In this document: in pieces, positions 7,971-19,575 of the stretch
Numbering within the stretch: position 1 is the first letter of the stretch
Layout of the letters: each line of letters begins with the position of its first letter
DNA from: Candidatus Heimdallarchaeota archaeon
Lineage (GTDB): Archaea > Asgardarchaeota > Heimdallarchaeia > Heimdallarchaeales > Heimdallarchaeaceae
Length of the DNA stretch: 31,029 nt
Assembly (NCBI GenBank): GCA_030668825.1
Contig: DAOVET010000028.1
Location: 1-31,029, forward strand
Reading direction: 5' to 3'
Made by a program: the position numbers and the translations under genes
The notes under the pieces: generated by a model
Seen by the model: only the letters and a program-made list of their open reading frames with translations
Databases searched by the model: none
Told to the model about the DNA's origin: nothing

Positions 7971-8129
7971 ATTGAATTTGAATTGTTATCAGGTTGCACT
8001 CTTTGAATGGGATTGTAGCCTTAATTGAAAGATATATAAAATACCTATTTTTACTCTATGTAACTGCAAAATGTGAGAGTGGAATAGTTTACAGAAAACA
8101 ATACTCAGCTCGAAAAGATAGATTCCTTA

Positions 8130-10019
8130 ATGAGTTCTTACAGCTATAAGGAAGCTTTGGAGAAAATTACACAATTAGAGGAGACTCCCAATATCTCAGA
8201 GAGCAATTTTGCAGAACTTATGTTTCGAAAATCATTCGTACTTACCCATTTGGGTTTTTTTGATGATAGTATTTCCCACGCTCAGCACACACTAAATCTA
8301 TTTGGAGGAAAGCTGATCTCCTTCACTCAGAAATATGACCTCTACTTTGTAATTATTGAATCTCTCTGGAGGCTAGGTAAATTTGAAGAAAGTCTTCTAA
8401 TGATTGAAAGGGTGGAGAACTACGCAAAAAACGCTATTATCGGCGAAGAAACAACTGTTATGATGGAAATTGAAACACAAATTCAGTTTCATAAAAGTTG
8501 TATTTATTGTTTTACTGATTTGAAGAGATCAGTTGAGCATGTCAACAAAAGCTTAAATCTTTCTGAAGAGGTTAAGAATGAAGTTCTTTATGCACGAAGC
8601 CTCTTTCGTAAGGGAAAAATACTTACCTATCAGGGGAAATTGGATGAATCTCATGAGATTCTCGACAAGAGTTTAGAAATTGGCAAAAAGCTGAATGACC
8701 ACAGTATAATGGCAAATTCATTAGTTGCAATAGGAGAAATTCACAGATTAAAAGGTGATTTTGGTCAAGCTTTGCAGTTCTTTGATACTGCTTTGATTCT
8801 ACTTCAAAAAATTGGTAACAATTATGGTATGTCTATTACTTACAATAATGTGGGAATAGTTTATTACAGCCAAGGAGATTTCGATAATTCTTTTGAGTAT
8901 TTCACAAAAAGTCTTGAAAAAGCTCTTGAAATAGATTTTAAATTTACTGTTGTAGAATCGCTCTATTATTTGATTAACATACTTTTACTCAGAGATAATT
9001 ACTTCGAAGCAAAAGAGCATCTTGACATATCTAGAAACGCATCAAAAGATCAACAAGACACCATGATATTTTACTACTCTCAATTATCTGAAGCTGTGTA
9101 TCATAGAAAAACAAATAGATTTACTAGTTTAGGTAAAGCTCAAGAAATACTGGAATATATCATAAGCAAGAATCTTGTCTATCAAGAAATCAATATCCAT
9201 GCGATGTTGAATCTTTGTGAAATTTTACTCTATGAGTTAAGGTTTACCAACAATCCTGAAATTCTGGAGGATCTAGAAGAAATATCAGATAAATTGCTTG
9301 AAATAGCAAAAGAACAGATTTCAAGATCTCTTCTAGCTGAAGTGTATTGGCTAAAAGGGAGGCTTGCATTGGTAAATGCAGATATTGACAAAGCAACAGG
9401 ATTTTTGTCTCAAGCACAAATTATAGCTGAAGGTCAGAACTTAGAGAATTTGGCAAGAAAGATTTCAAGTGATCATGACGCTATATTAACCGAATATGCT
9501 GGCTGGAAAAATATCATCGAAGAAAATGCAAGCCTTGCAGACAGAATAAAGGCTTCACAAGTTGATAAGTTAGTTCTAAATATGATAAATAGAGCAACAT
9601 TTGATTTAGAAGAGATAGAAAATGACGCTCCTGTCATGTTGATGATTCTTGATGATAATGGTATACCCTTTTTCTCTTATCAATTCGGTGATGAAGATCA
9701 AGTCAATCAGATTCTTTTCTCAGGATTTTTGACTGCAATAAACAATATCATTCAAGAAGTATTTTCAACAAAAGGCTCACTAAAAAGAATAGAGCATCAA
9801 AATTATCTACTTATTTTCAGACAAATAGAAAATGTTATCATTTGTTATGCTTTCAAAGGATCTTCCTATTCAGCAAGTAAGAAAATAGAATTATTTAGAA
9901 GTAGGTTAACGTCATCTCCTATTTGGTCGGACTTCCCAAAAATGATCAAAACAGGAAGATATATGCAACAAGAAAAGGTTAAAAGGCTTGAAAACTGGGC
10001 TGACGAAATATTCACTTAA
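8130..10019 (+). CDS. TPR-repeat protein with C-terminal longin/roadblock-like domain
   Basis: ~40-aa TPRs (ARSLFRKGKILTYQGKLDES, ANSLVAIGEIHRLKGDFGQA, SITYNNVGIVYYSQGDFDNS); C-terminus LMILDDNGIPFFSYQF...QILFSGFLTAINNIIQEVF...IEHQNYLLIF has the beta-beta-alpha-beta-beta-beta-alpha pattern. Confidence 0.8.
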   Translation: MSSYSYKEALEKITQLEETPNISESNFAELMFRKSFVLTHLGFFDDSISHAQHTLNLFGGKLISFTQKYDLYFVIIESLWRLGKFEESLLMIERVENYAKNAIIGEETTVMMEIETQIQFHKSCIYCFTDLKRSVEHVNKSLNLSEEVKNEVLYARSLFRKGKILTYQGKLDESHEILDKSLEIGKKLNDHSIMANSLVAIGEIHRLKGDFGQALQFFDTALILLQKIGNNYGMSITYNNVGIVYYSQGDFDNSFEYFTKSLEKALEIDFKFTVVESLYYLINILLLRDNYFEAKEHLDISRNASKDQQDTMIFYYSQLSEAVYHRKTNRFTSLGKAQEILEYIISKNLVYQEINIHAMLNLCEILLYELRFTNNPEILEDLEEISDKLLEIAKEQISRSLLAEVYWLKGRLALVNADIDKATGFLSQAQIIAEGQNLENLARKISSDHDAILTEYAGWKNIIEENASLADRIKASQVDKLVLNMINRATFDLEEIENDAPVMLMILDDNGIPFFSYQFGDEDQVNQILFSGFLTAINNIIQEVFSTKGSLKRIEHQNYLLIFRQIENVIICYAFKGSSYSASKKIELFRSRLTSSPIWSDFPKMIKTGRYMQQEKVKRLENWADEIFT

Positions 10020-10143: not shown

Positions 10144-10236
10144 TTAATCTGTTAATATTTCAGTTAAATCTGTAGTAACTTCAGTTTCATCAGATCCAAA
10201 AGATTATGTTATCAATGGTAATTGAAAAGGAATAAA
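10144..10236 (-). pseudogene. Decayed duplicate of the 3' end of the 12320..14119 gene
   Basis: 10148-10191 matches 12324-12367 at 39/44 nt. The minus frame reads *FIPFQLPLIT*SFGSDETEVTTDLTEILTD* versus YIPFNL...DETESTADLTETSTE*, with the terminal stop at the same position. Confidence 0.75.
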
Positions 10237-10433
10237 TTACCGCTTAGAACATAGACTCATAAAAGCAAATCACATCTTACAAAATACTACTGAAGAGTAA
10301 TGATAGTATTATCAATTTCATTGACATCTACAGAATCTGGATATGGATAATAAGAACAATTTAATTCTTCTTTCTTTCTCTTTAATAAGTCTTCTTATTC
10401 TCTTTCTCACGTCTTATCAAGGTTTGATATTTT

Positions 10434-10916
10434 TTAACTCCTCAGTAGTTTGCGGTTCTTCCTATTGAAAAACAACAATAAATTATATGGAATAATCATA
10501 GCCAATGATTGAATTAATAAGTATAGATGCAGATGAATGTAGACTGTACAACCCGATCCTACACCTTGATAAATCATGAAGACAAGGATATTAGCAGATG
10601 AATTTATTAAACGTGAAATAGCAACTGGATCTCTGATTCTGATAGTTTTTCTAGAAATAGTAAAATAAATATTCACAGGAATAAAAGAAAAAACGCTTAA
10701 AATAATAGAATAAGGTTTAACATAAGAAGCTGATGGAATTATCCAACAAGCAATACTACCTGGATGATCCCTGAAAACAAAAACATAGAAAACTATTATT
10801 GCAATAAAGAGAAGAATTTCCATTCCTATAAAGAGAATTTTTGTTGTTTTATCACATACTTTGCAATTATCCATAAGATTTATCTTAGATTTTTTATTTA
10901 AAAGTTGTTTCTTCAT
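10434..10916 (-). CDS. Uncharacterised 4-TM membrane protein (one copy of the E-x18-P / C / RxxN / C domain)
   Basis: Four hydrophobic segments; EILL...HPGSIAC, RLIN, GSGC, IIP; N-terminal CKVC; paralogous to the two upstream genes. Confidence 0.75.
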   Translation of the reverse strand: MKKQLLNKKSKINLMDNCKVCDKTTKILFIGMEILLFIAIIVFYVFVFRDHPGSIACWIIPSASYVKPYSIILSVFSFIPVNIYFTISRKTIRIRDPVAISRLINSSANILVFMIYQGVGSGCTVYIHLHLYLLIQSLAMIIPYNLLLFFNRKNRKLLRS

Positions 10917-10952
10917 TTGAAGATTTTCCAGAAAATATAAAAATTCTTTATC

Positions 10953-11873
10953 TTATTTCCTTAATGAATTTCTCATGAAGTATATTGTTAAGATAATTAA
11001 GCATTTAAAAAGAAATAGCAGCAAAGGAATTGTTAAAACCCAATTGAATGATTTAATCAATATCCATGCTTCTTGACTGATTTTAATACAATTTCCTGTT
11101 TGATAGGATATAAAATATTTTATTCCAAGCAATACAGTTACAATATTAATAGATCTTAACAATATCAAAGGAGATAAATCAAATATTCTTAGATCTTTAG
11201 AAAATAATGGTTTTATAAAGCTAATAATTGAAATTAGTAAAACTAAGATAAAGAAGAAAACTGTTAATAATCTAACTCCGTAAAACTGTTCAAAACTGCA
11301 TCCATATACTGAAAAAGGATAGCTAAATGGGAGAGTATACGAATACAAAATTACACATATAACTAATAGAATTTCAAATACTATTAGTTTAAAAGATGTT
11401 AAAAACTTAGATAAAATTTTCTTTAAGTTTTGAGGTTTGAATATTTTTAATTCTAATTTATGTTGTTTAAATCTTATAAATATTAAATATATGAAGGGAA
11501 ATATCAAACAACATGGTAGAGAGATAAAGGAATATATTGAAACCCAAATACGATATGAAATACAAAATTTATCAAACCAATTGATTAAATAAAAAAGGCT
11601 TAGCAGACTTAAAACTAGATTAACAACTCGTTGGTTTAGAAAAACATTATTTTTTCTCCCATTGATTCTATCATAATAAAACAGAATAAAACTGAAAATG
11701 GAGATAATATTAAGATAAATAATAAAAATAATATCAAATGGAGAAATTCCTATAGGTACCCAGAAAATGCACCCTCCAGGTGGTTTTCGCAATATGAATT
11801 TTAAAAGAAAACCAAAGATTGAAACAGTTAAAAGCAATTCTAATAAATTATTTCTCCCTAGTATTCTCTTCAT
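10953..11873 (-). CDS. Uncharacterised 8-TM membrane protein (two tandem copies of the same 4-TM domain)
   Basis: ELLL...KPPGGC / RVVN / DKFC, then EILL...YPFSVYGC / RSIN / TGNC; 4-nt ATGA overlap with the upstream gene. Confidence 0.8.
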   Translation of the reverse strand: MKRILGRNNLLELLLTVSIFGFLLKFILRKPPGGCIFWVPIGISPFDIIFIIYLNIISIFSFILFYYDRINGRKNNVFLNQRVVNLVLSLLSLFYLINWFDKFCISYRIWVSIYSFISLPCCLIFPFIYLIFIRFKQHKLELKIFKPQNLKKILSKFLTSFKLIVFEILLVICVILYSYTLPFSYPFSVYGCSFEQFYGVRLLTVFFFILVLLISIISFIKPLFSKDLRIFDLSPLILLRSINIVTVLLGIKYFISYQTGNCIKISQEAWILIKSFNWVLTIPLLLFLFKCLIILTIYFMRNSLRK

Positions 11874-12304
11874 CCAGAAATCAACTTACTTATCTTTTGA
11901 AAAACGAAACGAAATACAAAAAGAAATGGTATACATATTACAATTACTAATGAAATCAGAAATTGATCTAGTCCTACATAAACGATACATCCTTTTCCAT
12001 ACCATACCAAATAAATAGTAACTGCAATAATACTGGTTAGGATATTTACAAATCTATAAAGAAAGTATCTGAAATCAATCAAATCTGTAAATTTTCTATT
12101 GAATATATAAATTAGATAACTTGAAGTTGAAAAAAGTTCTACTAATATAACTATTGATAAAAAACCAGGAATTTGTATGACTGGACATATTGCTGCTCCA
12201 GGATATAAAATATAAACCAAAATAAAAAGAATCACTAGAAATACGAACAAGATTCCCTCCAAGATAGTAAATACCTCTAGAGCGAATAGGATCTTTATGA
12301 TCAA
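11870..12304 (-). CDS. Uncharacterised 4-TM membrane protein (one copy of the same domain)
   Basis: EGIL...YPGAAIC, RFVN, GKGC, CIP; TTG start 15 nt after the stop of the upstream gene. Confidence 0.72.
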   Translation of the reverse strand: MIIKILFALEVFTILEGILFVFLVILFILVYILYPGAAICPVIQIPGFLSIVILVELFSTSSYLIYIFNRKFTDLIDFRYFLYRFVNILTSIIAVTIYLVWYGKGCIVYVGLDQFLISLVIVICIPFLFVFRFVFQKISKLISG

Positions 12305-12319
12305 TAGATCTTCTTCCCA

Positions 12320-14119
12320 CTATTCTGTTGATGTTTCAGTTAAATCTGCAGTAGATTCAGTTTCATCTGTTTTTTGAACAGCTTGTTCCATAACCTCGAT
12401 ATCCGCATCCGCAACATAATCACTTTGTAAATTGAAAGGAATGTAGATTATATCGCCGACAGAGTTCACTTCAGCTAATTTTCCAAATTCTGGAATGAAA
12501 ATTGAATAAGGGTCAAAATATTCAGGTGATAATAATCTTCTCATATCATATGAAGCTTCTTCATTGTTAAGAGCTAAATAGATATTTGTAAGATATATTT
12601 CTATCTCAGAATTTAGTTTTGGTGTAAGCGATAAATAATAACTTTCATGAAGTTCTTTCATTCTCCTTGTAAATTCCTCGTTAGTTATTTCTTTCCTAAT
12701 TGCTAAAATTAGATTACCTGCTAAGGAAAATGCAATAGAATTCCGTGGTTCATAGATGGAGCCTTCAGAGAGACTTAGAAGCTTATGTGCATACTCTTCA
12801 AGTTTTGAAAATTCTTCTTTCCGGGAAGCCAGTGTTGTCAATAAAGTAACATATAGCCCATTAAGTTTAGGATACCTCTTCATTCCTTCTTTAGAAAAGA
12901 AGTAAGCATATTCTCGTTCCAATCTATCTATATTAGAGAAATCATCTGTATAAACGGTAATAAGCCCACCAAAATAGATTATCTCTTCAAGCATTCCAGC
13001 TATTCCATCAGCCATCTGACTTTTTATGAACTCCTCATTTTCCATTAGATGCTTGTATTTATCCAAATATTTCCATAACTCAGGCATAACATCCTTTTCA
13101 ATTTTATGAATCTCTGTTATGTTTTCTTTAGTTATTATATTATATGCAGATCTTAAACCTTTAATGAAAACTTTTGTAACTTCAAGCTCGTAAATTGTTT
13201 CACTCACGTCATGATCTGTTAAAGGATTTTCATTTAAATCGAAGAATCCATTATCGATATGGTTTTTTAAATCAGCGATATACCAATCGCTTTTATTAAG
13301 AAGATTTTCCAATGAATCAAATAATTTTTCAGGATCAGAAAAGTCCAGAATCTCTCTATTTGTTTCTATCTTTATGTCCTTATTAAACAAATACCGTTGA
13401 AGTTCAAGTAGAAAGGTAATAATGTAATCAATTGCTGCAAAGGTTGCATAGTACATAGAATAATTCCGTTCTTTTGGGATTTTTTTTGCTAGTTCGATAT
13501 TTTTTCGAACGTTCCAGAAGACATCCATGTAGTGGATATATTGAGTGCTTGCTTTTAGCCCCTCAGTCATCCAATGTTCTAGATCATGCTTGTATATCTG
13601 AGTTAAGGAATCGCATAAACTGAAGAAGAAAAGATATGCTGAACTCAGGTAATTCAACACAAGTTTTCTTCTTCTGTGAAATTCATGATGGTCCCAGTCA
13701 ACAACTAGATTCTTAACATCTAATGTTGTAATTCCAATTAACATGTTTGCTAGAGCATGTGCTGAACCTGCAATCTGTAACTCCCCAGCATGACCGTATT
13801 GTAACGCATACATTGAAGCATATCTTAATCTGAATAATTCTAATTCGTACCATTGTATTGGTAATTTATCTTGAGGAAGATTGGTTAAGATTAAAGTGAT
13901 TTTTTCTAAAAATTTCTCAAAGAATAATGAAGCTTCATCAGAATTCATGAGAATATCATCAGGAATCTCACCAAGAATGTGTTTTAATTCATCAACTCGC
14001 TGTGAAACAAGAATTTTTACTCTAGTCTCTGAATAAGTGCTCCAATTTACATTATTGACAATACTACCAATATTATCCATTAATTCGAGTACTTCTTTGG
14101 TATATTCTTTTTCAGGCAT
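12320..14119 (-). CDS. Hypothetical soluble, apparently all-alpha protein (~599 aa) with an acidic Thr-rich tail
   Basis: Long ORF. ATG at 14119 preceded by gtgag is preferred over the GTG at 14143. No recognisable motif. Confidence 0.8.
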   Translation of the reverse strand: MPEKEYTKEVLELMDNIGSIVNNVNWSTYSETRVKILVSQRVDELKHILGEIPDDILMNSDEASLFFEKFLEKITLILTNLPQDKLPIQWYELELFRLRYASMYALQYGHAGELQIAGSAHALANMLIGITTLDVKNLVVDWDHHEFHRRRKLVLNYLSSAYLFFFSLCDSLTQIYKHDLEHWMTEGLKASTQYIHYMDVFWNVRKNIELAKKIPKERNYSMYYATFAAIDYIITFLLELQRYLFNKDIKIETNREILDFSDPEKLFDSLENLLNKSDWYIADLKNHIDNGFFDLNENPLTDHDVSETIYELEVTKVFIKGLRSAYNIITKENITEIHKIEKDVMPELWKYLDKYKHLMENEEFIKSQMADGIAGMLEEIIYFGGLITVYTDDFSNIDRLEREYAYFFSKEGMKRYPKLNGLYVTLLTTLASRKEEFSKLEEYAHKLLSLSEGSIYEPRNSIAFSLAGNLILAIRKEITNEEFTRRMKELHESYYLSLTPKLNSEIEIYLTNIYLALNNEEASYDMRRLLSPEYFDPYSIFIPEFGKLAEVNSVGDIIYIPFNLQSDYVADADIEVMEQAVQKTDETESTADLTETSTE

Positions 14120-14244: not shown

Positions 14245-15081
14245 TTATCTCTCGATGAAATAGAAGTGGCAAGATTTGTTTACAATCTTCCAACTATCTT
14301 CAATTTTAAGCAAAGTTAAGAAATCTGTTGTGTGTCCTGTTCCCTTTGGAGTAGTAGCCTTCCAATACATAACTGCTATTGCTGCTGTTCCTCTCTGATC
14401 AATTTGCTTGATCTCTGTTTCAAAGGTGATACCTTCAGTTTTATGATTTTCTAAGACCTCTCCCCATACTGCATATGGTAGGAACTGATTCTTAAATTGA
14501 TGAGTTTCTTGATCAACTGAATTCAATCTCATAGAGGGATGAAACGTTTGTTTGATTTTTTCCATATCCCAGTCATGAAATGCTTGAGCATAGATTTCCA
14601 GATTCTCTGTAATCTTCTCTATTTCATCAGAATCGTTGGAGGGTAAAGAAATATCCCCGTTGATTCTTCTAACTAATTCCTCTTGTTTAAGGGGAATTGT
14701 GTGTCCAGATTTGTTGACAATCTTCCATTGAGAATCAAACTTCATTAATGTGAGATAATCAGTTGTATCTCTGTAATCTTGAGGGTCTTCTATAAGAAAA
14801 CGAACTCTTGCAAAAGCTACAGTTCCGTATTGAGTTATTCTTTCAATATTAACATAATAATTGACTTCAGGTTCTTCTACTTGGTTTTTGATAAAATCTT
14901 CAATCCATCTATAACAAAGACCATTATAGAATCTGTTACTCTCAGGTATAAACCAATATACCATTGAATCGGAATGAAATGCTCTAACCAATTTACTTAT
15001 ATCCCATTCATTAAAAGCCTCTTCATATAACTGAATAGTTTTTTCTATACTTTCAATTTCATGGGTTTCGCCTTTAAACAT
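14245..15081 (-). CDS. Tandem NTF2-like (SnoaL/Lumazine_bd_2-type) domain protein
   Basis: Two copies of Y..AF..WD......FH.....TTD(Y/F)LTL.K....WKIVNK. Start is set at ATG 15081 because of a strong AGGAGGT SD at 15087-15093, which also removes the overlap with the upstream gene. Confidence 0.85.
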   Translation of the reverse strand: MFKGETHEIESIEKTIQLYEEAFNEWDISKLVRAFHSDSMVYWFIPESNRFYNGLCYRWIEDFIKNQVEEPEVNYYVNIERITQYGTVAFARVRFLIEDPQDYRDTTDYLTLMKFDSQWKIVNKSGHTIPLKQEELVRRINGDISLPSNDSDEIEKITENLEIYAQAFHDWDMEKIKQTFHPSMRLNSVDQETHQFKNQFLPYAVWGEVLENHKTEGITFETEIKQIDQRGTAAIAVMYWKATTPKGTGHTTDFLTLLKIEDSWKIVNKSCHFYFIER

Positions 15082-15100
15082 ATAATACCTCCTTTTCATA

Positions 15101-15484
15101 TTACGCACTTTTAACATCAGAAATCTTTGAAACAATTTTCCAATCTTTCTTAATCTTAATTAGAGAAACATAATCAACACAAATTCTCTTCTTCTCTTCT
15201 CTTTCCACTGACCATTTTAGTTTCACACAAGCTGCTTGACCAAATATATCCAAACTCTCAATTTCAGCTGTTTGTTTTATAGCTATTGAAGGTTTAGACG
15301 AAGGTCTAGATTGCAGCATAGTAATTGTTTTTAGAGAATCAGAATCTGAATCATAGTAGATTTTCACTCCTCGGGTATGCCAAGAGTTTTCTGCTTTCTC
15401 AAAATTAAATTCTGCAACACCTTCCACGTAACTTTGGATGGTTAGCTTTATCCTCTCTGCTTCTTCTCTTTCATTAACTTCCAT
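15101..15484 (-). CDS. Single NTF2-like (Lumazine_bd_2-type) protein
   Basis: IKLTIQSYVEG...WH...DYVSLIKIKKDWKIVSK; paralogous to the domains of the downstream gene. Confidence 0.85.
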   Translation of the reverse strand: MEVNEREEAERIKLTIQSYVEGVAEFNFEKAENSWHTRGVKIYYDSDSDSLKTITMLQSRPSSKPSIAIKQTAEIESLDIFGQAACVKLKWSVEREEKKRICVDYVSLIKIKKDWKIVSKISDVKSA

Positions 15485-15717: not shown

Positions 15718-16653
15718 ATGAGAAATGAGAAAAAAAGACCATTACTTACAATAATTGTATTTTTGCTGACATTTAGTTTAATTTCATCAGTACTTCTGGG
15801 TACTCAAGCTGCAAATGTTAACACTTTTCAAACACAATTAGAATCCACTTTAACACCGCATGAACCGATTTTAATTTATAATAACGCTAATTTCAGTGAT
15901 TATTCATTACCTGGTTCAGGGACTGAACTTGATCCATATAGAATAGAGAATTATAATATTACTACTATTAATACTGCTGGGATAATCGTTCGGAATACAA
16001 CAGACTATTTTGTTATTCAAAACTGTTATGTTGATGCATGGTTTACAGCTATAGGTATAACTATAGTTGACCCTGGAACCGGTGAAATTTCAGGCGTTAC
16101 ATGTAAGAAAAACAAATTATATGGCATTGTAATAGGAGAAACATCTCAAATCACTGTCAAAAATTGTGTTGTTGAAGACAATATTGATGTTTTTGGTATA
16201 GGGATATATTTAATTGACTCTTTTGAAATCACTTTAACCAACAATACCTGTATAAATAATAATTATGGTTTATATTTGGAAAATACCAACTCATGCGATA
16301 TAAGCTATAACACTTTTGCAGATAATTTAGAGTATGGAGTCTATTTGCTCTCTGATACTAATGATAATATTGTACATCACAATAAATTTATCAATAATTG
16401 TGGTGGCGCGGTGATGCAAGCAAGGGATGATGGGGTGAATAACTTGTTTTATGAAGCATCTTCTGAACAGGGCAACTACTGGGATAATTGGAGTTCTAAA
16501 GATTCTATTGTACCAATAGCAGGTTTAGCTGATAATGAAGATCCTTATCCTTTAGATGAAGAACTTATAAGATTGGCAAGTTTGTTCTTTTTACCTGTAT
16601 TAATAGCCTTAGTTATTGTCGTTTATAAGAAGCGAATTAAAAAGAAGAGTTAA
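15718..16653 (+). CDS. Membrane-anchored right-handed parallel beta-helix (NosD/CASH/pectin-lyase-like) surface protein
   Basis: Signal peptide; GSGTELDPYRIENYNI; PbH repeats (GIYL..S..ITLTNN.C.NN.YG); GNYWDNW and DPYPL; C-terminal TM and KKRIKKKS. Confidence 0.88.
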   Translation: MRNEKKRPLLTIIVFLLTFSLISSVLLGTQAANVNTFQTQLESTLTPHEPILIYNNANFSDYSLPGSGTELDPYRIENYNITTINTAGIIVRNTTDYFVIQNCYVDAWFTAIGITIVDPGTGEISGVTCKKNKLYGIVIGETSQITVKNCVVEDNIDVFGIGIYLIDSFEITLTNNTCINNNYGLYLENTNSCDISYNTFADNLEYGVYLLSDTNDNIVHHNKFINNCGGAVMQARDDGVNNLFYEASSEQGNYWDNWSSKDSIVPIAGLADNEDPYPLDEELIRLASLFFLPVLIALVIVVYKKRIKKKS

Positions 16654-17708: not shown

Positions 17709-17781
17709 GCTTTCCAAAAATGAATTTACTTGAAGAATAATTTAATAATGTAGAAGCTAATTGTCATTTGGAATCATCATT

Positions 17782-19575
17782 ATGTTCAGGCATAAATCAA
17801 GAAATCTAAAATTTGGTTTGGTATTTTGCTTCGTTATTACTCTATCATTTATTAATATTAACAACCACAAAATGATTCTAGCTAGTGATTCCACTTATGA
17901 TATAAGATTAGATTTAATTGACAGATCTAATTGGTTTTGGACAGATTTAGATTTAATCTCATCTGAAAGCAATGACCTTTCCTATGAACCTCAAGTCTTT
18001 GTAGATATTCAAGGAAATATCCATACTTTATGGGAAGATAGATCAGACTATCTTAGTTGTGGTTTGGATGTAGATATTTTTTACAAGTGGTATAACATAG
18101 TAACTAAAACATGGTCAGCTACTGAGGTAGTCTCAACAGAAAGCATAGATGATTCAGTACAACCTGATATTGTAGTTGATACTGGGGGAAATGTTCATAC
18201 CATCTGGAAAGATATCTCTAACTATGATGGTTCAGGGTTAGATGATGATGTTTTCTACAAAAGAAAAGATGCTAACACTGGGAGCTGGACATCTACTCTA
18301 GTACTTTCGTATTTCAGTGATTCAATTTCATTAGGTCCTTCAATTTGTATAGATTCAGAAGACAATGTTCATTCAGTTTGGTTTGATTTTACCAATTATC
18401 AAGGTTCAGGAATTGATGGTGATTTATTCTATTCGGTATTAGACTCTGAAACATTTCAGTGGTCTTCTATTGATGTAATTTCTACAGAGAGTACTGCTGA
18501 CTCTTTTTATCCGCACATAACTGCTGATTCAGAGGATAATATTCACGTTTCTTGGGGGGATTATACTGATTACTTGGGGACAGGAAGTGATGCTGATATC
18601 TTCTATAAAAGATGGATAAAATCTGTCAATTATTGGACGACTACAGAAGTAATCTCTGCTCACTCTTTAAACATAGATCCTTCAATTGATGCAGTTGTAG
18701 AAGTTGCTGATGATGGGACAGTTTATGTTTCTTGGCAAGACTATTCTGGTTTTTATGGCGTTGGAACGGATCCAGATATCTGTTTGAATGTTTGGGATCC
18801 TATCTTAGGTGAATGGAGTGGAGCTTATATTGTCTCTATGTACAGTTCTGATTATTCATATGATCCTAGTCTTTATGTTGATTATTCAGGAGAGCTACAC
18901 TGTGTATGGATGGATTCGAGTGATTATGCTGGGAGCGATACTGATTTTGATATTTGGTATAGTTCATTTGACCCAATATCTAAATCTTTGAGTACCCCTG
19001 AGGTTCTTACTGACAATATTGATACTTCTTCCGTTCCAAACATAGTTTCTGATAATAAAGGATTTCTATACTTAGTTTTTTCTGATAGTTCTTATGTAGA
19101 TTCTGGAACTGATACTGATGCATATCTTATGAGATATGTTTCATTACCTACTGCTCCAAATTTAGAAGAAATTCAACCAGATCCATCAGAGACTAGTTCA
19201 TTGATTTTAGAATGGAATAATGTTAGAACTGCTTCTGATTATATAATTTGCAGATATAAAGGAGATTTAGTGTCCCCCTCTGATTTAATCGCATACGATC
19301 AAGTTTCACTAAACAGCTTTACTGATACAATAGAAGAAAGTGGAACATATTATTATGCTATCAAATCAATAAATGAATTTGGCGAGAGTAATTTGTCTAA
19401 TATTGTCAATATTGAAGTAAATGTTGAAAAAACAGGCTCTTTCTTAAAATCCCTTGATATAATCGATTTTGGTATTCTAGCTGCTCTAATCATAGGTGTT
19501 CAGATTATATTTACTACAGCTCTATATTTTTCATTAAAAGGAAAATTCACTACCAAGAAGAGAAAGAAGAAATAA
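17782..19575 (+). CDS. Membrane-anchored beta-propeller (7 repeats) + FN3-like + TM surface protein; paralogue of 1..1767
   Basis: Same repeat (GNIH..W.D..DY.GSG.D.DIFYK), SNWFWT leader, GTYYYAIKSINEFGESNLSN, TM ILAALIIGVQIIFT and KKRKKK tail; ATG 17782 preferred over TTG 17761. Confidence 0.87.
   Translation: MFRHKSRNLKFGLVFCFVITLSFININNHKMILASDSTYDIRLDLIDRSNWFWTDLDLISSESNDLSYEPQVFVDIQGNIHTLWEDRSDYLSCGLDVDIFYKWYNIVTKTWSATEVVSTESIDDSVQPDIVVDTGGNVHTIWKDISNYDGSGLDDDVFYKRKDANTGSWTSTLVLSYFSDSISLGPSICIDSEDNVHSVWFDFTNYQGSGIDGDLFYSVLDSETFQWSSIDVISTESTADSFYPHITADSEDNIHVSWGDYTDYLGTGSDADIFYKRWIKSVNYWTTTEVISAHSLNIDPSIDAVVEVADDGTVYVSWQDYSGFYGVGTDPDICLNVWDPILGEWSGAYIVSMYSSDYSYDPSLYVDYSGELHCVWMDSSDYAGSDTDFDIWYSSFDPISKSLSTPEVLTDNIDTSSVPNIVSDNKGFLYLVFSDSSYVDSGTDTDAYLMRYVSLPTAPNLEEIQPDPSETSSLILEWNNVRTASDYIICRYKGDLVSPSDLIAYDQVSLNSFTDTIEESGTYYYAIKSINEFGESNLSNIVNIEVNVEKTGSFLKSLDIIDFGILAALIIGVQIIFTTALYFSLKGKFTTKKRKKK

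Follow-up and report, generated by a model that had tools for sequence, protein, structure and literature searches.

Claudins are known by a large first outer loop that makes most of a five-stranded sheet, by a W-GLW-C-C motif and by an intra-loop disulfide, and proteins of the claudin type act through lateral association, not catalysis. Connexins carry several Cys per outer loop, with inter-loop disulfides and with the loops paired as β strands. The dimers of SMR (EmrE-like) transporters are antiparallel, with dual or opposite topology. As stated in part of the 2021 update of TCDB (PMC7778945), the tetraspan junctional superfamily is almost exclusively eukaryotic, and 17 families of putative transporters appear exclusive to the Candidate Phyla Radiation (CPR) and Asgard superphyla. 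A preprint (10.64898/2026.03.05.709764) describes MauE as a DsbB-like oxidase with four transmembrane (TM) helices, active Cys (CXC) in the TM3–TM4 loop and a conserved Glu and Lys in the helices. Here we compare with these systems a gene cluster (positions 10434–12304) in a 31,029-nt stretch of DNA from a Candidatus Heimdallarchaeota archaeon (contig DAOVET010000028.1), the whole of which is called the window and whose numbering is used for coordinates. Three co-oriented minus-strand open reading frames (ORFs) of 144, 306 and 160 aa encode four homologous units of about 125–150 aa, here named U1 to U4. The best overall explanation, put forward tentatively and with a little less than even confidence, is a Heimdallarchaeal tetraspan family with Cys-linked loops that works as a dimer of units in a structural or auxiliary role. 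The genes and units are as follows, U2 and U3 being obtained by cutting the 306-aa protein after residue 150.

11870–12304, minus strand: U1 gene, 144 aa, single-unit type, sole start TTG; match to the unit hidden Markov model (HMM) E 4e-42; single-unit clade
10953–11873, minus strand: gene of the two-unit fusion, 306 aa with about 8 TM helices; one HMM domain at E 2.8e-33, a second at 2.6e-31
11424–11873, minus strand: N-unit U2, first half of the fused gene
10956–11423, minus strand: C-unit U3, second half of the fused gene
10434–10916, minus strand: U4 gene, 160 aa, single-unit type; HMM E 9e-54; unit used for the structure model

The fused gene overlaps the upstream U1 gene by 4 nt and is separated from the U4 gene by a 36-nt spacer. 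An earlier note on this DNA, made from the sequence alone, had read the three genes as four units of about 125 aa with shared motifs, and every spacing that it listed is correct. E-x18-P is present in all four units, with the Pro followed by a first Cys (Cys1) after 5, 4, 6 and 5 residues. RFVN, RVVN, RSIN and RLIN occur in the respective units, the Arg of this motif precedes a second Cys (Cys2) by 22, 22, 22 and 21 residues, and a Pro in TM4 follows after 20, 22, 21 and 20 more. When the whole motif was written as a regular expression and run on the window and five related loci (L001–L005, see below), whose six-frame ORFs of 100 aa or more number 108, it matched at 10 places, every one of them in a family gene. 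Smith-Waterman scores of the unit pairs were compared with 300 whole-sequence shuffles: five of the six pairs gave z values of 6.8–11.5 with no shuffle reaching the score, and the U1–U3 pair was weak (z 2.3, 8/300). After shuffling inside 6-residue blocks, which keeps the hydrophobic profile in register, the same measure was 2.4–5.6 in five of six pairs and not significant for U1–U3 (z 0.87, 62/300). Reversed partner sequences scored 36–58 versus 69–115 for the forward ones. The earlier note had also proposed a profile alignment of the units. With subtype profiles built from relatives of each subtype, N-units aligned with C-units at 91.6% probability (E 8e-7), single units with C-units at 75% (E 2.5e-5) and single units with N-units at 97% (E 1.3e-10), all in the same register. 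From these comparisons the four units are judged to be homologous.

The family has no name. Searches of Pfam, NCBIfam, PHROGs and PADLOC returned nothing for the three cluster proteins, and 20 family units compared with Pfam at E ≤10 gave only scattered matches due to membrane composition, with no DsbB, VKOR, MauE, DoxX, SMR, claudin, MARVEL, tetraspanin or connexin model among them. The suspicion that no known family would be recognised thus held, there being no named match in Pfam, NCBIfam, PHROGs, PADLOC, PDB sequences or Foldseek. No paper describing the family was found in full-text literature searches, and the portions seen of the paper on circularised Heimdallarchaeum genomes (PMC8813620) do not mention it. 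An HMM built from the four window units was run against 1.84 billion representative proteins (E ≤0.001) and returned 9 representatives, namely seven single units and two two-unit proteins; as this profile held four sequences, more distant relatives may exist. Further, closer members came from word-based searches, one of which, made with a family alignment, returned P0005 only. A genome scan with the family alignment gave the five related loci, four titled Candidatus Heimdallarchaeota and one "archaeon"; L001 belongs to a metagenome-assembled genome (MAG), a sister genome to which the source of the window, with 95% identity in the fused protein, is closely related. In total, 5 public loci hold orthologues and paralogues of these genes, and 20 further proteins belong to the family. 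Four members carry an organism name, all annotated as hypothetical protein: one from Ca. Heimdallarchaeum endolithica, one from Heimdallarchaeota AB_125 and two from Heimdallarchaeaceae. Among relatives carrying a name, the family appears to be confined to Heimdallarchaeia. In L003 (960–1445) a Cys-free membrane protein with four segments lies directly upstream of the fused gene; its match to the unit HMM (E 0.0047) may be one of composition only.

Conservation was counted over 28 units, which are not all independent. The TM1 Glu is present in 28/28, Cys1 in 27/28 (Trp in P0011), Cys2 in 27/28 (Gly in P0016) and the Arg in 26/28 (Ser in P0011 and in the L005 N-unit). The Pro after TM1 is found in 22/28, with a one-residue shift in 5, and a Tyr three residues past Cys2 in 19/28. 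The conserved set proposed at first therefore stands for the Glu, both Cys and the Arg; the Asn (21/28) and the TM4 Pro (18/28) are, by these counts, features of some copies and not of the family. A tree of 20 units contains three groups: the C-units of fused proteins (support 100/100), the N-units (100/99; next to them, at 97/89, come the L005 N-unit and P0011) and the single units (92/91), U1 and U4 among them. Since N-, C- and single units form separate clades, the N–C fusion is old. Orthologues of the fused protein in L001–L005 have 33–95% identity, the highest value being that of L001. The fused gene stands alone among unrelated neighbours in L002, L003, L004 and L005, and the three-gene arrangement is found only in L001 besides the window. 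This does not agree with the rapid divergence of tandem copies supposed in the earlier note: the four units come from three old clades, and they are members of long-separated subtypes, not fast-diverging recent duplicates.

Summed over 20 units, Lys and Arg residues number 76 and 72 at the N- and C-termini, and 12, 77 and 19 in loops 1, 2 and 3. By the positive-inside rule this distribution predicts both termini inside and both Cys loops outside, so that the outward orientation first proposed for these loops is borne out by the charge counts. U4 was modelled by AlphaFold2 from the 20-unit alignment, giving five models. The best one (mean predicted local distance difference test score, pLDDT, 82.7; predicted template-modelling score, pTM, 0.74) is a four-helix bundle with helices at residues 3–50, 66–87, 95–119 and 129–159 and strands at 59–61 and 125–127. 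Its β residues are only 54, 59–61, 122 and 125–127, all in the two Cys loops, and because a β bridge needs a partner and no other β residues exist, the two outer loops have to pair with each other. Cys57 is flanked by β residues 54 and 59–61 and Cys123 by 122 and 125–127; these offsets would fit a parallel register setting residue 57 opposite residue 123. Glu33 in TM1 and Arg102 in TM3 each lie 17 residues short of the outer end of their helix, i.e. at equal depth in the inner half of the bilayer, the Glu being about 7 residues into TM1 from the cytoplasmic side. Conserved residues form stripes with helical periodicity on TM1 (33, 36, 40, 43, 47, 51) and on TM3 (102, 105, 109, 112, 116, 119, 123), with which a packing of TM1 on TM3 over the whole length fits. 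The tetraspan fold and the buried polar cluster proposed beforehand both find their counterpart in the model, the first as a four-helix bundle whose Cys loops pair as the only β ladder, the second as Glu33 and Arg102 at the same depth. We consider it highly probable that a unit is built as a four-helix bundle with both termini inside and paired outer loops, as modelled. A disulfide between the two outer loops is rather probable, and the TM1 Glu may contact the TM3 Arg/Asn in the inner leaflet.

When the U4 model was compared with PDB structures by Foldseek, the top rows were mostly tetraspans of the claudin fold (TARP gamma-2, GARLH4 and the Cav1.1 gamma subunit), with template-modelling scores (TM-scores) of 0.33–0.45 and probabilities up to 0.80. 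The claudin/PMP22/TARP/LHFPL proteins share with our units the four helices, the inner termini and outer loops that pair in a β structure, which in those proteins carries the Cys link. However, the Heimdall outer loops have only about 13 and 9 residues, with two 3-residue strands in place of a five-stranded sheet. They hold one Cys each, so that any link would be inter-loop, and the W-GLW-C-C motif is absent. No significant similarity in sequence or structure was found (no Pfam match, best Foldseek E 0.49, TM-score at most 0.45). The likeness to the claudin fold is taken, at the level of the model, to be architectural and not evidence of kinship. Connexins, pannexins and innexins likewise have four TM helices, inner termini and outer loops paired as β strands. 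The Heimdall units differ in having one conserved Cys per loop, in being much smaller and in matching no Pfam model of this type, and no connexin-type protein was among those listed of at least 500 Foldseek matches. Two other candidates were considered and set aside. Sequence profiles compared with PDB chains matched only the KCNQ voltage sensor, and this marginally (E 0.013–0.07). These matches all came from one protein family and aligned S1–S2 with TM2–TM3 in opposite orientation; they were gone with the N-unit and C-unit sub-profiles, and the single-unit profile gave E ≥0.23. In a language-model Atlas, P0023 scored 0.92–0.93 (190–194 of 256 features) with unnamed proteins of about 164 aa from Nucleocytoviricota and eukaryotes. 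This was not reproduced by P0019, which reached only 0.85, to unnamed bacterial clusters, and the viral and eukaryotic likeness has no support from HMMER or from a Foldseek comparison with viral models, in which no match reached E ≤0.001 and the best had E 0.12. The Atlas models were poor (pLDDT 0.53–0.54) and their structure rows were ignored.

The two Cys also bring to mind the DsbB/VKOR/MauE proteins, which likewise combine a four-helix bundle with outward Cys and conserved charged residues in the helices. According to this alternative the units would form a membrane thiol-redox module, in which the outer Cys pair cycles and electrons pass to a lipid cofactor. In its favor, two conserved outward Cys stand on a four-helix bundle, and MauE as described (10.64898/2026.03.05.709764) is a four-TM DsbB-like oxidase that has its active Cys in the TM3–TM4 loop and whose helices contain a conserved Glu and Lys. 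In the Atlas, the named cluster nearest to P0023 has MauE on 19% of its members, but its score (0.84) lies below the Atlas lead threshold. The Heimdall units have one Cys per loop, without CXXC or CXC (0/28), and each Cys is missing in one member. Their polar cluster and their Cys are at opposite ends, the cluster at the cytoplasmic one. None of 20 members matched a DsbB, VKOR, MauE or DoxX model of Pfam at E ≤10, hhalign against E. coli DsbB gave 0.2% probability, and no gene for a thioredoxin-fold partner lies nearby in the window. Because a vicinal Cys motif is lacking and the polar cluster is at the opposite face, a thiol-redox role is unlikely, and its probability is put very low.

The invariant Glu suggests a comparison of another kind. 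SMR/EmrE-like transporters have about 110–150 aa, four helices and a Glu in TM1 (28/28 in our units), and they occur as single genes, gene pairs and fusions. Two parallel 4-TM units could thus be imagined to form a small channel or an ion- or proton-coupled transporter in which the TM1 Glu binds or gates. The Glu is kept even in the two units where Arg is replaced by Ser, which hints at a role beyond a salt bridge, one that would fit ion or substrate binding; a polar Glu/Arg/Asn cluster within the bilayer and the existence of the family as single units, as neighbouring single units and as a two-unit fusion point in the same direction. On the other hand, the Heimdall units are all predicted to be N-in, unlike the dual-topology small transporters, and any dimer would therefore be parallel; SMR proteins lack outward Cys loops. 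The two units of the fused protein, in particular, would be parallel because they are separated by four helices. In 20 members no transporter family of Pfam, SMR included, was matched at E ≤10, and hhalign against E. coli EmrE gave 0.06% probability. Conservation is limited to very few positions, and the recent substitutions fall evenly on all helices. We regard this possibility as unlikely.

The explanation that we prefer, a tetraspan family with Cys-linked loops, can be pictured as follows. On the outer face the two short loops would form a two-stranded ladder around one Cys each, and in the inner leaflet the TM1 Glu would meet the TM3 Arg/Asn. The family exists both as single units and as an old N–C fusion with about 8 TM helices. 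The working particle may be a parallel dimer of units, formed by the fusion alone and by single units as homo- or heterodimers, e.g. U1 with U4; we give this part about an even chance. Action would be by lateral association in the membrane and through a small outer face, as in the claudin/TARP-type architecture. That the role is structural or auxiliary is possible but doubtful; this guess comes from the few constrained residues, from the lack of an enzyme- or transporter-like signature and from the nearest shapes being those of the claudin fold. An enzyme role is not thought likely. Several observations weigh against this explanation. A pLDDT of 82.7 was reached by only one of the five models, the remaining four being at 66–72. 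P0011 has no Cys1 and P0016 no Cys2, each retaining the other Cys, and the Glu remains invariant where P0011 and the L005 N-unit have Ser for Arg. Foldseek, run as the earlier note had advised in search of a confident hit, gave no PDB match at E ≤0.001 for the U4 model, the best being E 0.49, and TM-scores were all below 0.5. Finally, repeat proteins (NosD β-helix, LVIVD, CarboxypepD_reg) are encoded within a few kb of the family genes in 4/5 distinct loci, which may be no more than their background frequency in these genomes. They are located as follows.

Window, 15718–16653: nearby repeat protein
L002, 3838–5001 and 8686–10434: nearby repeat proteins
L003, 5107–7152: nearby repeat protein
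L004, 7833–8909: nearby repeat protein

In L002, L003 and L004 these proteins have a hydrophobic tail, which suggests surface anchoring.

The cluster is the AT-rich part of the window, as had been remarked in the earlier note: windowed GC content is 0.258 in the cluster region versus 0.338 in the remainder, and only 6 of 584 windows of equal length are as low. Phe, Ile, Leu and Tyr together make up 39–53% of the cluster proteins. GC at first codon positions is 0.26–0.36 in the cluster genes versus 0.37–0.54 in the other window genes, and at third positions it is 0.195–0.224, inside the window range of 0.19–0.29. The low GC is mostly a matter of amino-acid composition, and a foreign origin deduced from AT-richness was rejected for this reason. 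The lowest GC of the window, and a U1 gene with TTG as its only start, could also suggest that the three ORFs arose by chance in AT-rich DNA and are not genes. The L001 orthologue of U1 has an ATG start and a basic N-terminus, and the N-terminus of U1 itself is non-basic. The chance-ORF reading, which retains practically no probability, is already refuted: homologues at 25–95% identity exist in several genomes with their frames open and a ratio of nonsynonymous to synonymous divergence (dN/dS) below 1, and the structure model of U4 is confident. Between orthologues dN/dS is 0.2–0.4 (in the fused gene of L002 versus L004, 0.32 with a synonymous divergence, dS, of 0.62), and more distant pairs are saturated, at about 0.2.

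The comparison with L001 further indicates that the three genes belong to a segment with a history of its own. The features concerned, in addition to the genes listed above, are these.

10194–12277, no strand assigned: young segment (cassette), with far lower divergence from L001 than its flanks
10145–10191, no strand assigned: 47-nt remnant on the downstream side of the cassette, from a duplication of the 607-aa gene's 3′ end; direct repeat of 12321–12367 with 87% identity
12320–14143, minus strand: 607-aa neighbouring gene, whose 3′ end (12321–12367) is the other repeat copy

The segment has 96.8% blastn identity to L001, versus 90–92% in the flanks, and its synonymous divergence is about 8-fold lower. 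Pooled over the three cluster genes, dS is 0.048 (18 synonymous changes on 386 sites) and dN/dS 0.54; over three flanking genes the values are 0.402 (282.5 on 908 sites) and 0.11. In non-coding DNA, 229/240 and 36/36 positions are identical within the segment, compared with 177/206 and 89/105 in two flanking spacers. Since the non-coding DNA, too, is less diverged here, the whole segment is young relative to its surroundings and not merely constrained. On either side of the three genes stands a direct copy of the 607-aa gene's 3′ end (10145–10191 and 12321–12367). In L001 this duplicate is about 590 nt long (8086–8675 and 12045–12634) and decayed into broken reading frames, and the sequence past the stop codon of the 607-aa gene is that found in the window past the downstream repeat copy. 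About 880 extra nt, absent from the window, lie in L001 between the 607-aa gene and U1. They include, upstream of U1, a 52-aa ORF (9355–9513) corresponding to the C-terminal half of a decayed fifth unit of the N-type (hhalign 94.9%, E 4.7e-8), and a scrap (8818–8940) resembling the N-terminus of an acetyltransferase (E 0.0022). The three genes form an accessory cassette of about 2.1 kb that was recently exchanged between related genomes. They could have been integrated by homologous recombination on a piece of DNA that also carried a duplicate of the neighbour's 3′ end. Alternatively, a segmental duplication around the genes may have been followed by decay and by recent exchange between lineages.

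Such behaviour raises the possibility that a mobile or variable island carries the units as cargo and that they have a strain-level function on the cell surface, such as superinfection exclusion, immunity or a component recognised by viruses. The lowered dS and raised dN/dS, the duplicated gene end that brackets the cassette, and the fifth-unit remnant and other gene fragments beside it in L001 would all agree with this, as would the position of the fused gene of L005, which directly follows a tRNA-His gene and has a TnpB-like gene in its vicinity; the apparent behaviour of the cassette fits a surface or immunity role at the strain level. In the fused protein, 7 of the 15 amino-acid changes between window and L001 fall in two stretches of outer loop 1 (28 of 306 sites, P 1.8e-4). 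However, this hot spot was not replicated in 10 independent close pairs, where 14 of 115 changes fall in loop 1, which makes up 159 of the 1471 sites (enrichment 1.13, P 0.36), and all regions change evenly, at 0.06–0.10 per site, with few constrained sites; diversifying selection on outer loop 1 is therefore not claimed. No defence, toxin or phage family was matched, no integrase or transposase was seen in the window, and the neighbours of the fused gene in four other loci are unrelated. As an account of what the proteins do, the island reading is quite unlikely, and the tetraspan family of structural or auxiliary type is retained as the best explanation.

The protein encoded by the 607-aa gene has no Pfam, NCBIfam or PDB match, and among the loci compared its gene adjoins the cluster only in the window and L001. 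An operon of the cluster with this gene was rejected, the two being immediately adjacent only in the window and separated in L001 by the gene debris of about 880 nt. The U1 ORF continues the reading frame of the 607-aa ORF, and between them (12302–12322) there are only the TAG stop of the latter and five codons, an arrangement absent from L001. TAG reads as an ordinary stop because it ends 6 of the 23 window ORFs. No upstream motif common to the family genes was found, and a scan for sigma-70 promoters and terminators gave matches at shuffle level only. In L005 (9670–9760 and 12116–14218) the tRNA-His gene lies directly upstream of the fused gene, which is flanked by two Ras-family GTPase genes and has a TnpB/Cas12f-like gene close by. 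Elsewhere in the window, the large ORFs at 7–1767 and 17761–19575 are paralogues of no Pfam family, built from 174-nt (58-aa) repeats in six copies with 63–100% identity and sharing an 82-nt stretch near their 3′ ends. At 14245–15484 there are two adjacent, slightly overlapping ORFs, each with a putative lumazine-binding domain (Lumazine_bd_2), the longer one also with a SnoaL-like/DUF4440 domain.

Heimdallarchaeia count among the known archaea most closely related to eukaryotes, and many of their membrane proteins are unnamed. One family of these is now defined by signature residues, a topology, a usable model and three subtypes, and the cassette illustrates, cleanly and on a small scale, a recent exchange of genes between Asgard genomes that are related. 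One may speculate that this Asgard tetraspan is a prokaryotic protein akin or ancestral to the tetraspan junction proteins and auxiliary subunits of eukaryotes, organising the envelope or cell-cell contacts. This is a long shot, to which we assign a minimal probability; if true, descent of the claudin fold from such proteins would move the origin of a nearly eukaryote-only superfamily into the Asgard archaea. As the evidence stands, the units represent a lineage-specific family of accessory membrane proteins.

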